Shown in pieces: positions 28,491-41,463 of a DNA stretch of 43,075 nucleotides; position 1 is the first letter of the stretch; each line of letters starts with the position of its first letter. This DNA is from a virus (Duplodnaviria > Caudoviricetes). The DNA is taken from positions 1 through 43,075 of the IMG/VR virus record IMGVR_UViG_3300033417_000020, one strand, 5' to 3'. The notes under the pieces were generated by a model that was not told the DNA's origin, did not search any database, and was given only the letters and a program-made list of their open reading frames with translations. Position numbers and translations under genes: made by a program.

Positions 28491-28648
28491 CTCTCCTACG
28501 ATGGACCGTAGGCCCGGTTTCGGCAACTCGGGGCGTCACGGGTCCGGAGTAACGCAGCGCACACCGCCCACGAGGTCTTAGCCTGGGCTGGTTCATTGCG
28601 CTGCCAGTCCCTAGATTGGAAGCATAGTCGGTTAGGCTAAACGTCGGC

Positions 28649-28689
28649 GAGGGCCCCAGGGGGCAATCCTCTGGGGCCCTTTTCGTTTT
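28649..28689 (+). terminator. Intrinsic terminator-like hairpin
   Basis: AGGGCCCCAGGGG-GCAAT-CCTCTGGGGCCCT followed by TTTCGTTTT. Confidence 0.7.
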
Positions 28690-28699
28690 CCGGGGGGTC

Positions 28700-28957
28700 G
28701 TGCTGATCCAAGCCACGGAGATCATCGGGGGCCTCGGGCTCGTGCCCAACGTGGCGGCGGCCGTCTGGCTCGTCTACGGCGGGGCGAAGCTGTGGCAGAC
28801 GCTCCGCGGCGGGAACGGGAACGGCAAGGCCGTCGCCGCCCAGCTCCGGTGGCTGCGCGAGCAGCTGAAGGAGGACGTCGCCGACGCGAACACGCTCTTG
28901 TTGGCGCGCTTCGAGCTCCTCATCGGCAACGCGATCCGGGAGGCCCGCCGTGGCTAG
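28700..28957 (+). CDS. Holin/antiholin-like membrane protein
   Basis: One hydrophobic segment plus a helical tail. First gene of the lysis cassette. Confidence 0.45.
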   Translation: MLIQATEIIGGLGLVPNVAAAVWLVYGGAKLWQTLRGGNGNGKAVAAQLRWLREQLKEDVADANTLLLARFELLIGNAIREARRG

Positions 28958-32239: not shown

Positions 32240-32815
32240 ATGCCGACCACTCTCCCCGCTGGGAGTCCTGTCGCCATCGCCGAGCCTGTCGCGCCGCCGC
32301 CATGCGTCGGGGCCTTCTGGGCCAAGGTCACGAGGACGACAAGCTGCTGGCTTTGGAACGGGGCCACGGATGGCCGCCACTACGGTGTCTTTCACGTTCC
32401 TGGGACCAAGAACGGCGTTGAGAAAGCCCACCGCTTCGCATGGCGCCTGACACATGGGCCAATCCCCCCCGGATCCTGCGTTTGCCATCACTGCGACACA
32501 CCAGGCTGCGTCCGACCAGATCACCTGTTCCTCGGCGATCACACCGCCAACATGCGGGACGCCGCGCAGAAGGACCGCTTCCCGCGCGGGCTTCGGAGTG
32601 CGCTTCAGCGCGAACGGATGGCCGACCCCCGGAATCGCGCTGCCATCGCCGCGAAGTTGAGGGGCCCGAGGCCACCCAAGACGCATTGCCGCCGCGGGCA
32701 TCCCCTCTCCGGATACAACGAGGTGATCGCCAGAGACGGCAAGCGGAGTTGCCGGACCTGTAAGGTCGAATGCACGAGATCGTGGCGCCGTCAACGCGCC
32801 GTGGGGACGACATGA
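32240..32815 (+). CDS. HNH homing-type endonuclease
   Basis: CWLWNG, YGVF, AHRFAW, VCHHCDTPGCVRPDHLFLGDHTANMRD and C-terminal THCRRGH...CRTC. Confidence 0.88.
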   Translation: MPTTLPAGSPVAIAEPVAPPPCVGAFWAKVTRTTSCWLWNGATDGRHYGVFHVPGTKNGVEKAHRFAWRLTHGPIPPGSCVCHHCDTPGCVRPDHLFLGDHTANMRDAAQKDRFPRGLRSALQRERMADPRNRAAIAAKLRGPRPPKTHCRRGHPLSGYNEVIARDGKRSCRTCKVECTRSWRRQRAVGTT

Positions 32816-33569: not shown

Positions 33570-34250
33570 ATGCCCATGACAGAGAGCGAGAAGGACACGA
33601 TTCGCAAGCTCCCGTGCGGGCAGTGCGGGGCGGTCCCGCCCTTTGCTGACGGCAGCCTTTGTCATCCGCACCGCCTCGTGCCCGCGCGGGGATACGCCTC
33701 AGGCAACGTGGAGCCGCGGTGTCCAACCTGTCATGCGGGCGAGGCTGGCCACCGCGCGTTCACAGCACACGCCCGGGCGGCTGGGCTGCAAGTACATGAA
33801 GTACATCCGACACTCGCTCGCGAGAATGGCCTCAAGGGGTTTGGCTCCAACCGTGAGGCCGCGAAAGCAGCGAGTCTGCGCGCGCATTCGCTACACCCGA
33901 CACTCTCCCACGAGGGTGGGCGCGCGAGTTTCGGGGCAGACCGGCAACGAGCAATTGAAGCCGGGCGGAAGGGCGGGCGCCGTTTTCAATCCGTTGACCC
34001 CGCTCGGGCTGCAGCGCAGCGGCGTCGTGCGGTGGGCGCATACATGGCGACGATGACGCCCGAGGATCACGCCGCCAAGATGGCGGAGGCACGGAAGGCA
34101 CGGTGGGCCAAACCCCGCACCCATTGCAAGCGCGGTCACGAACTGACGCCCGAGAATAGGTATCAGTGGCCGAACAGCCCCCGGTGGAGTTGTCGTATGT
34201 GTGCCCGAGACCGGCGTGAAGCATATGTCGCCCGGCGGGGGCTCCAGTGA
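33570..34250 (+). CDS. HNH-like protein with KGG-like repeats and THCKRGH zinc domain
   Basis: CGQCG...HPHRLVP...GNVEPRCPTCH, AGRKGG and THCKRGH...CRMC. Confidence 0.55.
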   Translation: MPMTESEKDTIRKLPCGQCGAVPPFADGSLCHPHRLVPARGYASGNVEPRCPTCHAGEAGHRAFTAHARAAGLQVHEVHPTLARENGLKGFGSNREAAKAASLRAHSLHPTLSHEGGRASFGADRQRAIEAGRKGGRRFQSVDPARAAAQRRRAVGAYMATMTPEDHAAKMAEARKARWAKPRTHCKRGHELTPENRYQWPNSPRWSCRMCARDRREAYVARRGLQ

Positions 34251-34420: not shown

Positions 34421-34815
34421 CCCTGCTCTCCTGGCGGAGCGGGCGCTCGTGGTCCCAGTGGCATATCGCGGACCTTGGCCTGCCGCTCTGCGGGACGCCC
34501 GTCCCCGACGCCATCCAGGGGTTCTCGCACCGCGCGGCGCGGCCGCGCGACTGGTTCCACATCTGCGCCCGATGCCGCGAGCTCGCGCTCCGGCGGAGCC
34601 GGCCGGCCGGCGAGCCCCAGTGGCGGCTGTCGGCCCGCGATCCGCGCGACGGCACGTTCCGGGAGATCCTGGTCGTCGCCGCCGACACGCACGAGGCGGC
34701 GCTCGCTTTCATCCGCGCCAGCGCCGCGCAGAGCGTCCTGGCCTGCAGTCCGGACGACTACCGGCTCGAACCCATGCAGGAATCGATCCCCACCCTCACC
34801 GGAGGTAACCCATGA
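34417..34815 (+). CDS. Hypothetical protein with H..LCG..C..C motif
   Basis: WHIADLGLPLCG...ICARC. Coupled at both ends. Confidence 0.55.
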   Translation: MTLLSWRSGRSWSQWHIADLGLPLCGTPVPDAIQGFSHRAARPRDWFHICARCRELALRRSRPAGEPQWRLSARDPRDGTFREILVVAADTHEAALAFIRASAAQSVLACSPDDYRLEPMQESIPTLTGGNP

Positions 34816-35708
34816 CGGAAGCCTCGAAGTCCAAGGCGGTGGCCACGCAGCCCGAGCCGCCGCAGATCGCCGAAGCGCCCGACGCGCTCGAGCAGCAGCT
34901 CCTTGCCGATGCGAAGACGCCCCAAGAGCGGGCGCTGGCCTACCAGCTCGCCACCACGGCGCGGCAGCAGACGATGCTCCGCCGGACGGCGATGGCCGTC
35001 GCCGAGACGGGCTGGGGGAAGGATGTCTCGCCCGTCGCGCGCCAGGCGGTCGTGCGCTACTGCATGGAGATCGGGGCCGACCCGGTGCGGCACGTGCACA
35101 TCCTGGGCGGCACCGTCTACTTGAACGCCGCCTTCTGGATGGAGCTCGTCGCCGCGAACCCGAAGTTCCTGCGCGCCGCGCCGACGGAGTTCATCCACGA
35201 CGACGACCGGGCCACGCCCGAGGAACGCCAAGCGCGGAAGGCGCGGCGGGTCGAGTTCGGGGTGCCCGAGCAGGTCAAGGGCGCGGCCGTCGTCACGCTG
35301 TTCTACGCGGGCGACCGCGGCCCGTTCATCGGCGTCAACTGGGCGGGCTCCTACGGGAAGAAGCAGGACCCCGTCGGCGATCAGGACCCGACCAAGACGG
35401 CCGAGACGCGCGCCTACCGCCGGGCGGCGATCAAGGCCGAGCCCGCGTGGTTCCGCGATCACCCCCGGCTGCAGGCGGCGCAGGAATTGATCGTGCAGGG
35501 TCGCGAGCTCGAGCGGGCGGTGGACGCGCTGCCGCCGCTGGGCTTGAAGCCTGTGGCGACCGACGGCGGGTACGCCGAGGAACCCAGCGCGGCGTTGCCC
35601 GCGAAGGTGGGCGTGATCGAGAAGCATCAGCCGAACGCCATCTGCGGGCGCGAGGGCGAGCATCCGCGCGAGGAGTGCGGGCACTTCAAGGCCAAGGCGA
35701 CGGCGTGA
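34812..35708 (+). CDS. RecT/Red-beta-like single-strand annealing protein
   Basis: C...GADP..HVHIL, ELVAANPKF and DPTKTAETRAYRRAAIKA resemble the M..KT..R.A.R.A motif. SD GGAGG. Confidence 0.55.
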   Translation: MTEASKSKAVATQPEPPQIAEAPDALEQQLLADAKTPQERALAYQLATTARQQTMLRRTAMAVAETGWGKDVSPVARQAVVRYCMEIGADPVRHVHILGGTVYLNAAFWMELVAANPKFLRAAPTEFIHDDDRATPEERQARKARRVEFGVPEQVKGAAVVTLFYAGDRGPFIGVNWAGSYGKKQDPVGDQDPTKTAETRAYRRAAIKAEPAWFRDHPRLQAAQELIVQGRELERAVDALPPLGLKPVATDGGYAEEPSAALPAKVGVIEKHQPNAICGREGEHPREECGHFKAKATA

Positions 35709-36109
35709 GTCCTTGCCCGCTCTGCGGCGACACGGCGACGCCGCGCCTCACCTACCACCAGGGCGCGCCGGGAACCCCTGACGGGGTCGTGCATCAGAAC
35801 TGTGTCGTGTGCGGCCGCCACTGGCTGGAGCCGTGGGAGCCGCCACCCGCCCGCGCGTGCGGGTGGTGCGGGGCGGAAACGGTGCGCCGAATGTCGGTGC
35901 CCGCGCCGGAGGGCTGGGAGCCGGCCCGCGGGTGGCAGAAGGGGGACGCGCCGCTCGTCCTGGTGCCGGAGTGTGAGGGCTGTGCGCGGACGCGGGCGAT
36001 CGCCCAGCTGCGCGCGCGCCAGGAGAACCCGGCGATCCTGGACCGGGTGCGGGTGGCGGAAGCGGCGATGCTGGCGGAGGTGGGTGGGAGGACTGCCGCT
36101 GCAGCGTAG
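35705..36109 (+). CDS. Zinc-finger protein
   Basis: Four CxxC pairs (CPLC, CVVC, CGWC, CEGC). GTGA-coupled. Confidence 0.6.
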   Translation: MSPCPLCGDTATPRLTYHQGAPGTPDGVVHQNCVVCGRHWLEPWEPPPARACGWCGAETVRRMSVPAPEGWEPARGWQKGDAPLVLVPECEGCARTRAIAQLRARQENPAILDRVRVAEAAMLAEVGGRTAAAA

Positions 36110-36614
36110 CGGACCTGGTATGCGTGAGCCGTCCGTCTTGCGCGAATCTCGACGGTCGGTGCTCTGCCGGGGAAGCGAACAGCGTGGGTGACCGGCGACA
36201 GGCGTTCATAACGCAACGTCGGCCGGTTGATGCAGGGGTCACACCCGACCGCGCCCTGGCTGGTGGCGTAAAGCATCGGAGCGAGTAACGCACAGCTCGA
36301 GGGACGGGCAATGCCTCTAGGCCGAGGCGACGCGGTGAGTCAACGCGTGCGTGAAACCGGGGAGCGCGAGGACGCCCTTCACCAGCGTCCGGCCGATGCC
36401 CAGAGCTGCGCCGAGACGGACGAGCGCAGGCACCAGCCAACGTAGACACCCCAGGAAGGGGGCGGGGCTCATTCGGGAGCCGGAGTCAGTCCGCCCCCAC
36501 GTTGGGACCAGAGTACCGCCCCGGGGCTGGCCAGGACGCCGGTGGACGGCCGCGCCTGAGCCGTTGCGTGAGGGCTGCCGGCACGGCCCAGGGCTTCGAC
36601 CACCCGCTGCACCA
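36100..36614 (+). ncRNA. Candidate large structured non-coding RNA with tRNA-like termini
   Basis: The only ~500-bp gap in a tightly coupled operon. Many nested helices are visible, with terminal TGCAGCG/CGCTGCA followed by CCA and a TTCGA motif. Confidence 0.55.
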
Positions 36615-36626
36615 CGAGGACGACCC

Positions 36627-37256
36627 ATGACGACCGCGACCCGATCCGCCGCCCTGAAGTTGCCCCAGGTCCTCGCCGACCTGGACCTGAAGCTCGGCAA
36701 GGCGCTGAACGCGCCGCTCCGGGAGCTCTGGCCCGAGGGCGACAAGTTCCTGAAGGCCGAGCAGCCGGAGGAGATCGCCAAGATCCTCATCCGCACCCAT
36801 CTGCACGAGCGGCTCATCAACGCGAAGATCGCCTACCTGTTCCGGCCGGACATCCTGTCGCGCGGGGACTCGAAGCTCACCGTCGCGGCCAAGGCCAGCG
36901 GGCCGCTCGCCTTCCTCACCGGGATGGATTTCGTCGTCGCGTTCAATCACAAGCTCTGGCTGCGGCTGACGCCGGAGCAGCGCCTCGCCTGCGTCGATCA
37001 CGCCCTGTCCGCGTGCGAGCGGGATCCCGACTCGGGCGCCTACGCGGTCCGCCTGCCCGACGTCGCTGAGTACTCGGGCGTCGTGCAGCGGTGGGGCCTC
37101 TGGACGCCGCCGCTCCGCGGCTTCGGCGTGGCGATCGAGAGCGCGCAGCTGGAGATCTTCGTGCCGATGGAGCAGTTCGAGGACGCCGAGGAGGAGGATC
37201 CACCGCACGACCAGGCGGACGCCGAGCGCCGGCGGATCCAGCGGGGGGGCAAGTGA
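36627..37256 (+). CDS. Phage putative metallopeptidase family protein (degenerate HExxH)
   Basis: IAYLF, DFVVAFNHKLW..LTPEQRLACVDHALSAC, PDVAEYSGVVQRWGLW. SD GAGGA, ATG 36627. Confidence 0.65.
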   Translation: MTTATRSAALKLPQVLADLDLKLGKALNAPLRELWPEGDKFLKAEQPEEIAKILIRTHLHERLINAKIAYLFRPDILSRGDSKLTVAAKASGPLAFLTGMDFVVAFNHKLWLRLTPEQRLACVDHALSACERDPDSGAYAVRLPDVAEYSGVVQRWGLWTPPLRGFGVAIESAQLEIFVPMEQFEDAEEEDPPHDQADAERRRIQRGGK

Positions 37257-38854
37257 CCGCCGGCGCGGCTGTGCGGCCCACGCCGCAGACGTCTGCACCG
37301 ACGCCCCCGGGCGAGGTGCGACTGATCCCACTCACCGAGCTGTTCGAGTCACCCTGGAATCCGCGCAAGCACTTCGACCCGGCGAAGCTGCGCGAGACAG
37401 CCGAGTCCCTGCGCGTGAGCGGGCAGCTGACGCCGATCACCGTGCGGCCGTGGACGCACAAGGAGCGGGGCGACAAAGTCGCCACGCCGTACTACGAGAT
37501 CGGCGCCGGTCACCGGCGCTTCCGCGCGGCGCCGCTCGCCGGCCTGACGAGCCTCTTGGCCGTCGTGCGGCCGCTCGACGACGTCGCCTTCCTCGAGCTG
37601 CTGACGATCGAGAACAAGCAGCGCGAGGACGTGACGCCGCTCGACGAGGCCGCCGGGTTCCGGATGCTGATGGAGAAGGCCGGCTACGACGTCGCCAAGC
37701 TGGCCGCGCGCATCGGGCTCTCGATGAAGTACGTCTACGACCGGCTCAAGCTGCTGCAACTGCGCCCCGAGGCGAGAAAGCTCCTCGAGGACGGGACGAT
37801 CACCCCGGGCCATGCCATCCTCTTGGCCCGCTTGTCGCCAACGGATCAGCAGCGCGCGATCGGGAATCGGACGCGCAGCTGGCACGGGATCGATGGCGGC
37901 CTCTTCGAGACCGAAGACGCCGACGGCCTGGACTTGAAGGACGCGGTGAAGCCGCGCAGCGTGCGCGAGCTGCAACAGTGGATCCACGACAACGTGCGGA
38001 TGAAGCCCGAGACCGTGGATCCGTTCCTGTTCCCCGAGACCGTCCAGGTCCTGGCCGAGGCAAAGGAGACCAAGGACAAGGTCGTCCACATCACCTACGA
38101 GTACCGCGTTCCGGACGGCGCGCGAGACCCGAACGAGAAGACCTACGGGAAGGACGGCTGGAAGCGCGCCGACGGGCGCGAGCGGTCGAAGAAGTGCGAT
38201 CGCAGCGTCATCGGGCACGTCGTCGCCGGCCCGCACCAGGGCGACGCGTTCCGGGTCTGCGTCAACAAGAACCGGTGCAAGGTGCACTGGAAGGAGCAGG
38301 CGACCGCCTATGAGCGGCGGGAGAAGGCCGCCAAGGCCGAAGCCAAGCGTCAGCGCACGGCGGCGGCCAGCGGGAAGGCCCGGAAGGCGCCGGCGCCGTC
38401 GGAGCGCGAACGCGCGCAGGCCGCCGTCAACCGGGAGGCCACTGAGGAGGCGGCGCGCGAAGTCGAGCGCCTGCGTTGGGATAAGGCGACACCGGCCCTC
38501 CTCCAAGCCCTGGCCGATCGCATCGAGAATTGGGGCCAGCCCGGGGCGACGAGCCAGATCGGCAAGTACATCCTAAAGCATACCGATGCGGTCGCCGGCC
38601 GGAGTCGGAACCTCGAAAAGGTGATGAAGCCCGGGCGCTCGGCCGACGACTTCGTCCGGTACATCGCCTTCGTGAATGCTGGCGCGCAAGTCAAGAACGC
38701 CTATGACGCGGACGACATAACCGCCGAGCTGCAGCTGTTCGGTCTCGACGCCCAGAAGATTGTCGACCGGGTCGCGCCTAAGCCGACGTCGGAAAAGAAG
38801 CAGCCCGCCAAGAAGCCGGCGAAGAAGAAGGCGAAGAAGAAAGGGGGCCGCTGA
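37253..38854 (+). CDS. ParB/RepB/Spo0J family protein
   Basis: SPWNPRKHFD, GQLTPITVRP, YEIGAGHRRFRAA, IENKQREDVTPLDEA and HTH LAARIGLSMKYVYDRLKLL. Confidence 0.9.
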   Translation: MTAGAAVRPTPQTSAPTPPGEVRLIPLTELFESPWNPRKHFDPAKLRETAESLRVSGQLTPITVRPWTHKERGDKVATPYYEIGAGHRRFRAAPLAGLTSLLAVVRPLDDVAFLELLTIENKQREDVTPLDEAAGFRMLMEKAGYDVAKLAARIGLSMKYVYDRLKLLQLRPEARKLLEDGTITPGHAILLARLSPTDQQRAIGNRTRSWHGIDGGLFETEDADGLDLKDAVKPRSVRELQQWIHDNVRMKPETVDPFLFPETVQVLAEAKETKDKVVHITYEYRVPDGARDPNEKTYGKDGWKRADGRERSKKCDRSVIGHVVAGPHQGDAFRVCVNKNRCKVHWKEQATAYERREKAAKAEAKRQRTAAASGKARKAPAPSERERAQAAVNREATEEAAREVERLRWDKATPALLQALADRIENWGQPGATSQIGKYILKHTDAVAGRSRNLEKVMKPGRSADDFVRYIAFVNAGAQVKNAYDADDITAELQLFGLDAQKIVDRVAPKPTSEKKQPAKKPAKKKAKKKGGR

Positions 38855-40604: not shown

Positions 40605-40918
40605 GCGACTCGTCGCTGCAATTGGGATTCCAGGCCCTCGAGGAGACCGCGGCGCGCGAGGCGCATCAGCGGCTCCTTGCGCAGCTCGTGCCGATCGCCC
40701 AGGGCCTCGCGCGGATGCGACCCGAGGGCATCACCGTGGCCGACGTCCGCCGCGAAGCCGCGCGCTACGGCCTCGTGCCGGCGAGCGGGCCCGGCCGCGA
40801 GCTGAGCTTCCTCGGCGCCGTCATGCGGAGGGCGGGGCTCGTCGGCACCGAGGAGTTCCGGCGCAGCGACGTGGACGCCAGCCACGGGAACCTGCATCGT
40901 GTGTGGAAACGGCCATGA
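40601..40918 (+). CDS. Hypothetical protein
   Basis: ATGA-coupled. LSFLGAVMRRAGL...SHGNLHRVW. Confidence 0.6.
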   Translation: MSDSSLQLGFQALEETAAREAHQRLLAQLVPIAQGLARMRPEGITVADVRREAARYGLVPASGPGRELSFLGAVMRRAGLVGTEEFRRSDVDASHGNLHRVWKRP

Positions 40919-41463
40919 GTAAACGGAAAGCCCTGTCGAAGAAACTCCGGTTCACGGTCTTCGCCCGTGATGGTTTCCAGTGCCAATACTGTGGGCGGAA
41001 TCCTCCCGCTGTCATCCTGCAGGTCGATCATGTCGTGCCGGTTGTGGAGGGTGGGGAAGATACCGAAGACAACCTCATCACGTCCTGCCAGGAGTGCAAT
41101 CAGGGGAAGGGCCGTGACCCGGCCACACGCCCCCTGCGGCCTGCCGTTCCCGAGCGCAGTGCGCAAATCGCGGAAGCCGAGGAACAGCTCGCCGAGTACC
41201 GGAAGCTGCTCCAACAGCGGGCCTCGCGCGTCGAGGAGGACGTCGAGCTGATCGTTTCGCAGTACGAGGATATCGCCGGGGCACCCTGGACACTCACCGA
41301 ATCCGGGAAACAGAGCGTTCGCCAGTGGTTGCGGGACTGGACAGTCGAAGATCTAAGGGAGGCCCTCTCGATTGCCGTGGCGTGGCTCGGTCCCGGCAAC
41401 CAAGGGCTCTTCGCCTACGTTGGTGGCATTCTGCGGAAGTGGCGCACAGAAGGACGGCGGTAA
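40915..41463 (+). CDS. HNH endonuclease
   Basis: LRFTVFARDGFQCQYCG...LQVDHVVPVVEGGEDTEDNLITSCQECNQGK. Confidence 0.9.
   Translation: MSKRKALSKKLRFTVFARDGFQCQYCGRNPPAVILQVDHVVPVVEGGEDTEDNLITSCQECNQGKGRDPATRPLRPAVPERSAQIAEAEEQLAEYRKLLQQRASRVEEDVELIVSQYEDIAGAPWTLTESGKQSVRQWLRDWTVEDLREALSIAVAWLGPGNQGLFAYVGGILRKWRTEGRR

Follow-up and report, generated by a model that had tools for sequence, protein, structure and literature searches.

The window, i.e. the whole stretch of 43,075 nucleotides that was analyzed, is a 43-kb virus record that is 66% complete and contains gpA terminase, lambda-type portal and capsid genes. Its non-coding stretch of interest belongs to a rightward operon of closely packed genes and is flanked by a Cys-rich ORF, to which family searches assigned no family, and by a PF18894 gene followed by ParB (Table 1). 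A preliminary description, made from the letters of the window, had presented this stretch as the only long gap of an operon otherwise joined by 4-bp overlaps. The gap indeed measures 517 nt (36110-36626), the next largest being 37 nt, and 12 of 18 checked junctions are overlaps of 4 bp. Searches for sigma-70 promoter and terminator patterns at the element were negative.

Upstream of the Cys-rich ORF, a 298-aa protein (34812-35708, + strand) belongs to no Pfam or PHROG family and has 87 relatives, SbcD-like genes being neighbors in relatives; a RecT-like assignment was unsupported by the family searches. Because relatives of this protein (47% identity) occur in two Gemmatimonadales MAGs, the phage host is probably a member of the Gemmatimonadales (Gemmatimonadota). 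The RNA is absent at these two MAG loci, which bear the 298-aa gene and its SbcD-like neighbor. Three HNH-type ORFs are located elsewhere in the same operon (32240-32815, 33570-34250 and 40915-41463). At 28510-28690 (+), a stretch of about 180 nt in which no ORF is clear precedes a small ORF at 28700 and ends in a strong, G+C-rich hairpin and a T run; all Rfam matches on this hairpin were sub-threshold, and the region is possibly a small RNA or a terminator.

Table 1. Features at the locus, with their coordinates in the window
Feature	Position	Strand	Basis or remark
Cys-rich ORF, 134 aa	35705..36109	+	TAG falls inside the conserved 5' end of the RNA
Whole predicted ncRNA, ends inferred	36100..36614	+	Copy comparison
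Possible closing helix, 5' strand (pairs with 36605-36611)	36100..36106	+	Probability 0.94; weak comparative support
5' domain, irregular hairpin 36114-20/36165-71 and 36128-36/36152-60	36114..36171	+	RNAalifold, 4 copies
Core common to all copies, CGAACA and three-way junction	36176..36257	+	10/10 distinct copies
P1 36182-87/36249-54; long arm 36190-36228; short hairpin 36235-46	within core	+	Copy comparison
Likely CAU anticodon stem-loop mimic, GCG / UUCAUAA (36205-11) / CGC	36202..36214	+	CUCAUAA in the other nine copies
YUGGU / GGCGUAA motif, possible 7-bp kissing partner of 36431-36437	36259..36271	+	Pairing inferred
Variable multibranch segment	36273..36399	+	z -0.15; no homologue support past 36287
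Module common to window and L066 (85%), hairpin 36406-11/36424-29 and GCACCAG	36400..36446	+	One compensated pair, two sequences only
3' module, long stem closed by 36518-25/36587-94, inner hairpin 36545-50/36560-65	36512..36601	+	5/10 copies
Tail CGACCACCCGCNGCACC	36597..36613	+	Common to L011 and L126, neither ending in CCA
Ribosome-binding site GAGGA for the next gene	36616..36620	+	Sequence
Phage metallopeptidase, putative	36627..37256	+	PF18894, E 3e-19
ParB-like protein	37253..38854	+	PF02195 and PF17762

Homologue collection and core structure

Since a single sequence at 70% G+C is not decisive, relatives of the element were sought. Protein searches led to the copies designated L002 and L011, a pattern derived from these and from the window led to L066, and a pattern scan of metagenomes returned 103 loci. 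A profile of four copies retained 12 loci at E<=6e-8, the next locus standing at 0.17. These loci represent ten distinct copies, the contig of the window itself accounting for one and relatives on phage and metagenome contigs for the other nine, with elements of 480-650 nt and a core identity of 0.62-0.93 (median 0.70). The covariance model scored the ten copies, which are also its training set, at 67-93 bits and the other loci at 33 bits or less. The sequence CATAA was part of both the pattern that found L066 and the metagenome pattern, and the invariance of the loop described below is therefore partly selected. Support free of this bias is provided by L002 and L011, obtained through proteins, and by a CAU-free viral scan in which the three true copies among nine loci (L002, L011 and L066) all carry the loop. 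The other viral pattern scans gave, as true over found, 0/0, 1/7, 2/9 and, with the CATAA pattern, 3/45.

The element was not found in the sampled Gemmatimonadota chromosomes. The core pattern occurred in 20 of 401, matches that were judged to be due to chance since a reversed control behaved similarly and none matched the profile; a further scan for the element, on overlapping samples, gave 0/401, as did the pattern of the Gly-like module described below; and model R1 produced a single weak match on 151 host chromosomes, in apparent coding sequence. Blastn and tblastn searches of cultured phages and plasmids gave chance-level matches only. Two DNA sequencing runs, possibly of the source samples, contain contigs with the version of the window (364 nt, identical) and with an HNH version. 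The latter is that of L002, which is 93% identical to the window across 36098-36287, then carries an HNH ORF (L002 3190-3663, +; phrog_374, E 1e-67) in place of the middle and finally matches the 3' module. The core is retained there despite the loss of the middle segment, and the joint is also present in run X2.

Genes flanking the element are separate and differ among copies, with their own stops and ribosome-binding sites, and include SbcD-like, Gam-like and ParB-like neighbors; the L079 copy is truncated by the contig end and contributes none. The element begins at a stop codon in five of the ten copies and ends 10-45 nt ahead of a start codon in the nine copies examined. The SbcD-like ORFs of L066 and L089, unrelated to the Cys-rich ORF of the window, terminate in the identical CGTAG.

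The best-conserved part of the element, 36176-36257, had been overlooked in the preliminary description. Its layout is the same in the ten copies and can be summarized as follows: CGAACA, a 6-bp P1, a long bulged arm, a GANGNN linker, a hairpin of 3-5 bp and GA. Unconstrained folding formed the junction in all copies but L095 and L079, i.e. in 8/10, seven of them displaying an open 7-nt loop; the long arm measures 12-14 bp in these eight. As a chance control, 76 loci matching the same pattern were used, after 17 duplicate rows had been dropped. The four P1 positions lying outside the search pattern are paired in 10/10 copies versus 0/76 chance loci, the three pairs beneath the loop are closed in 9/10 versus 2/76, and the loop starts with YU in 10/10 versus 7/76. 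Covariation was assessed with pairs fixed by anchors and no fitted alignment: 49 of the 50 variable cells pair, the null mean being 37.3 and none of 20000 shuffles being as good, figures that overstate certainty since the statistics ignore the kinship of the copies and the true copies were selected by a sequence profile made with four of the copies. An RNA on the + strand is favored by the six G-U cells, against no A-C cell, in P1 and the anticodon stem, and core lengths varying by non-multiples of 3 argue against protein coding. Taken as a structure, the core is well supported by these comparisons. The proposal that the stretch encodes a novel large structured phage RNA outside Rfam is upheld by the nine relatives and their covariation.

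An ATG-initiated frame of 13 codons ending in LVA-stop is located at 36230-36271 (+) and, by eye, is in frame also in L066 and shifted in L002. This ending is present in three copies and absent from the other seven, and the ORF was rejected as a coding feature for lack of conservation, as was a CAU-AUG pseudoknot.

The remainder of the earlier structural model was examined in the same manner. All 16 of its motif strings that were checked stand at the positions given for them. Folding of 36100-36614 proved no better than that of shuffled sequences (z -0.39, 37/100 shuffles as good), and the whole-element z-scores range from -2.7 to +0.3 across copies. Eight of the proposed helices were tested in the single-sequence ensemble, where the 7-bp closing helix (0.94) and the 11-bp helix 36130-40/36412-22 (0.96) are well populated and the other six are not. 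The partner of the 11-bp helix is however absent in L002 and uncompensated in register in L066, and a local alternative pairs 8-9 of 9 positions in all four alpha-type copies. The closing helix is missing its 3' partner in L002; the best match to the 5' boundary ranks 6/380, 8/369 and 1/383 among overlapping segments in three copies, and 83/430 in L002. An end-to-end closing helix is considered possible. At the same ends, an 8-bp direct repeat CCGCTGCA is found at 36096-36103 and 36604-36611; loss of one repeat copy along with everything between the two would join the neighboring ORFs in frame, and the repeat is not preserved in L002.

In the 5' domain, the four-copy RNAalifold prediction includes one compensated pair and several one-sided changes; the isolated domain of the window folds likewise (z -1.5) and is not populated in the full-length ensemble. 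Neither are the helices of the 3' module, where 3 of 25 pairs are compensated in the three closest copies. The strands of the hairpin at about 36558-36587, previously compared to group II domain V, pair otherwise in the alignment displaying these three compensated pairs. The motifs on which tRNA-like ends had been proposed did not withstand comparison either: the D-loop-like TGGTA is located inside a stem predicted in 4/4 alpha-type copies, the T-loop-like TTCGA occurs in one of the five copies having the 3' module, and the terminal CCA occurs in one of the three having the tail, both of these motifs being private to the window. A link to tRNA does exist elsewhere than at the ends, in the internal CAU arm (10/10) and in a Gly-derived cloverleaf (7/10).

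Likeness to host tRNAs and to known RNA families

The long arm of the core is capped in 10/10 copies by a 7-nt YUCAUAA loop standing on G-C-type pairs. Across the ten copies, the 29 pairs beneath the loop are without exception G-C or C-G, nine copies having three of them, and their order varies (GGG, GCG, CGC, CGG). The anticodon arm of the host initiator tRNA-fMet (RF00005, Gemmatimonadota) reads GGG CUCAUAA CCC. The loop CUCAUAA is exact in nine copies, the window having UUCAUAA (U32) on GCG/CGC; GGG/CCC is exact in 4/10, as is GGGCUCAUAACCCG. Four copies match host tRNA-fMet across 14 nt, individually within the shuffled range. In the Gemmatimonadota genome G132, whose 47 tRNAs display 45 distinct loops, the initiator and one further CAU tRNA have the loop CUCAUAA; of the three CAU tRNAs, the initiator alone has GGG/CCC below the loop, the other two having GGA/UCC. 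The 5' strand of the core, GCGYGGG, moreover resembles the acceptor 5' strand, and the short hairpin occupies the place of the T arm. Unlike the initiator, the core lacks both a D arm and a free 3' end, its arm of 12-14 bp is bulged, GA is inserted before the closing strand, and it is embedded in an element of about 500 nt that is missed by ARAGORN and Rfam. In the absence of a D arm and of a free acceptor end, such a structure would not decode. Its loop is likely to be an anticodon mimic. A tRNA-Pro-like 5' end in the window was also considered and dropped; it did not rank with the best alignments, and none of the matches in the window scored above shuffled sequences.

A shrunken tRNA-Gly cloverleaf is present in seven of the ten copies. 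The window is not one of them: 36100-36614 has no match to the Gly-module model R2, a collapsed tRNA-Gly was rejected there, and the 47-nt piece shared with L066 stands in its place. Unguided RNAalifold recovers the cloverleaf, with 8 of 22 pairs compensated, and the best of the seven host tRNAs of L212 is Gly(GCC) with 45.7 bits, the others reaching at most 35.3. All seven modules display by sequence G1-C72, C2-G71, G3-C70, U73, C35 and C36, the bacterial tRNA-Gly identity set being listed in a passage of PMC9976931. The features of a decoding tRNA are lacking, as the loop CCACCAG has C33 instead of U33 and the D loop is of 4-5 nt in 5/7; D and T loops are shortened in 5/7, and the anticodon-type loop has 8 nt in 3/7. 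The module ends in CUC, CUA or CUU as in the host gene, is the last module in 4/7 and is called a tRNA by ARAGORN in 2/7.

The Gly copies can be ordered from a nearly canonical form (L089) to shrunken ones, and the series makes visible how tRNAs are remodeled into parts of a larger RNA. L089 (1580-1650, -) and L097 (3352-3422, +) bear a near-canonical tRNA-Gly with anticodon ACC, C32/C33 and G38 directly at the 3' end of the element, with an 8-nt loop in L097. On the host side, 5/5 Gemmatimonadota genomes (L212-L216) contain an Ala-Gly-fMet-Val-Arg-Pro(-Arg) tRNA cluster in which tRNA-Gly(GCC) adjoins tRNA-fMet and both genes lack an encoded CCA. A further tRNA-like sequence, of which the 3' part with a CUUUUAA (Lys-type) loop is found at L271 1500-1565 (G004), is probably the attachment site of L011's phage.

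Searches against known families agree with the earlier statement that no canonical tRNA or tmRNA is present, Rfam and ARAGORN being negative on the window. On the nine homologue loci, Rfam reported only a tRNA in L089. The window copy has no cloverleaf with D and T loops and 3' NCCA as in RF00005, its core having no D arm. Resemblance to tmRNA is limited to a similar size, the possible end-to-end helix and the frame ending in LVA-stop in 3/10 copies, a short frame that is not conserved and does not qualify as a tag; in contrast to tmRNA, the element has an anticodon loop and has no G3-U70, no conserved T loop or T arm and CCA assembled from two ends, and no ARAGORN or Rfam match. No description of this RNA family was found in the literature, although the core could be among the 10,006 viral candidate RNAs (<=151 nt) of PMC10690425. 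The element represents a real and apparently uncatalogued family of phage RNAs, the core of which bears an anticodon arm like that of the initiator tRNA. Whatever its function, this is a family of about 500 nt whose covarying 80-nt core has been missed by tRNA finders and Rfam.

Proposed function and competing explanations

In a domain that does not decode, the CAU is kept while the letters of the stem change, and the simplest reading is that of a ligand for a loop-reading protein; such a protein fits better than the ribosomal P site because the stem order varies while the loop stays. The function favored here, with a probability of roughly 0.35, is that of a modular phage RNA acting as a decoy that would soak up a tRNA-fMet-directed host enzyme, e.g. 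a VapC-type anticodon nuclease. The non-coding stretch would be transcribed together with the operon, the CAU loop would be displayed on its 12-14-bp arm and bound by the loop-reading protein, and the host enzyme that attacks or reads tRNA-fMet would thereby be titrated. Passages of PMC7180214 and PMC8522696 describe VapCs that cleave tRNA-fMet within the anticodon stem-loop, AtaT, which acetylates Met-tRNA-fMet, and TacT, which prefers Gly-tRNA-Gly. PIN domains were found in three of five candidate host genomes and not in the other two, their link to tRNA-fMet being only putative. Against the decoy, high abundance would be needed, and the phage counter-measures presented in passages of PMC10264068 are cleavage-resistant tRNAs rather than decoys.

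Anti-phage defense has tRNA as one of its main targets, and the answers of phages in the cited papers are resistant tRNAs or repair enzymes. If the decoy reading holds, the element shares with the anti-defense tRNAs treated in parts of PMC10264068, PMC11464382 and PMC11555353 a connection between phage RNA and host systems attacking tRNA. Those molecules are however working tRNAs with altered loops, whereas the element keeps a host-type loop and cannot decode, so that it would compete with the host tRNA and not replace it. A non-decoding RNA keeping the initiator loop of the host would constitute a different phage answer. The broader and more tentative proposal, doubtful at present, is a new class of phage counter-defense RNA derived from captured host tRNAs, in which swappable modules unable to decode, mimicking tRNA-fMet invariably and tRNA-Gly frequently, would titrate translation-stopping toxins or nucleases that attack those tRNAs.

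Foremost among the alternatives, yet unlikely, is a cis-acting operator in the operon mRNA, whose CAU arm would bind methionyl-tRNA synthetase (or TilS) and tune the downstream genes in the manner of thrS and ThrRS. Passages of PMC9976931 on the E. coli thrS operator, and of PMC6542539 on other mRNA anticodon mimics, describe anticodon stem-loops offered outside tRNA to anticodon-reading proteins; recognition by MetRS relies mainly on the anticodon, and fitting a thrS operator with the Met anticodon brings it under MetRS control (PMC9976931). The boundaries of the element, close to stop and start codons as reported above, would suit such a regulator, and an upstream GGTCG can pair with the CGACC of the core in 6/10 copies to give an alternative fold, but this pair never varies and is thus without covariation support. 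Unlike the thrS operator, the element is phage-borne, carries CAU and does not precede a synthetase gene: PF18894 and ParB follow in the window and other genes elsewhere, unconnected to methionine. The CAU arm is, in addition, some 400 nt away from the next start codon, and a terminator-like site was not found.

Also unlikely, and ranked just behind, is an ornate phage RNA of the GOLLD/ROOL kind, which would fold and perhaps oligomerize by kissing loops and in which the tRNA-derived parts would be structural modules and not mimics. The size, the phage location and the variable middle are in line with it, and embedded tRNAs are known in some GOLLD copies, large structured phage ncRNAs with a variable interior being described for GOLLD and ROOL in parts of PMC12286853 and PMC12990946. 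In the element, YTGGT is found 79-91 nt from the core start in 6/10 copies, GGCGTAA likewise in 6/10, and YUGGU just 3' of the core co-occurs with ACCAG farther on in 5/10. The CACCAG-bearing loop may therefore be a kissing loop, the Gly-like CCACCAG with its non-standard C33 being complementary to YUGGU in these five. CUCA also fits the YUNR kissing-loop motif, but no conserved internal partner of CUCAUAA was seen by eye. No GOLLD, ROOL or OLE covariance model matched, GOLLD and ROOL being negative at E<=10 on the window region and at E<=1 on the nine homologue loci, and a tRNA array is missing nearby, no tRNA exceeding the cut-off in 4/4 phage records (66-95% complete); ARAGORN calls one anticodon-odd tRNA in L066. 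The element differs further in residing inside a protein-coding operon, in having an anticodon mimic as its most conserved part and in gaining and losing modules freely, unlike a fixed cage.

Less probable still are tRNA-like processing or stability signals, at which RNase P/Z-type cuts would divide the polycistronic phage mRNA or protect it, setting small RNAs free. The Gly-like module would be the natural substrate, given its preserved acceptor pairs, its U73 and host-like end, its frequent terminal position and the two ARAGORN calls. It is nevertheless absent from the window, its D and T loops are mostly shortened, and an invariant anticodon loop is not required for processing.

There is little to recommend either a ribozyme, such as a self-splicing intron, in which an HNH homing endonuclease would be optional, or the earlier suggestion that the RNA is excised by way of tRNA-like ends. 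The HNH ORF of L002, the closing helix predicted in the window and the 8-bp repeat capable of joining the flanking ORFs in frame would be compatible with these readings. However, no Rfam intron or ribozyme matched; a pattern for group II domain V, with its AGC triad and bulge, occurred in 0/10 copies; and group I patterns (P7 with R and S elements) gave no S element, the single R-like hexamer lying inside the HNH ORF. The flanking genes are separate and differ among copies, unlike the halves of an interrupted gene, conservation is lacking for CCA and TTCGA, and the HNH ORF replaces the middle instead of occupying a loop.

Finally, functionless, decaying remains of captured host tRNA genes, which the host arrangement of tRNA-Gly(GCC) beside tRNA-fMet and the graded Gly series might suggest, are very improbable: the stems show covariation within a topology that is new and unlike tRNA, the arm being of constant length, and the window and L002 share 93% identity across the 5' 190 nt, in contrast to the upstream Cys-rich ORF and the middle, both of which have diverged.
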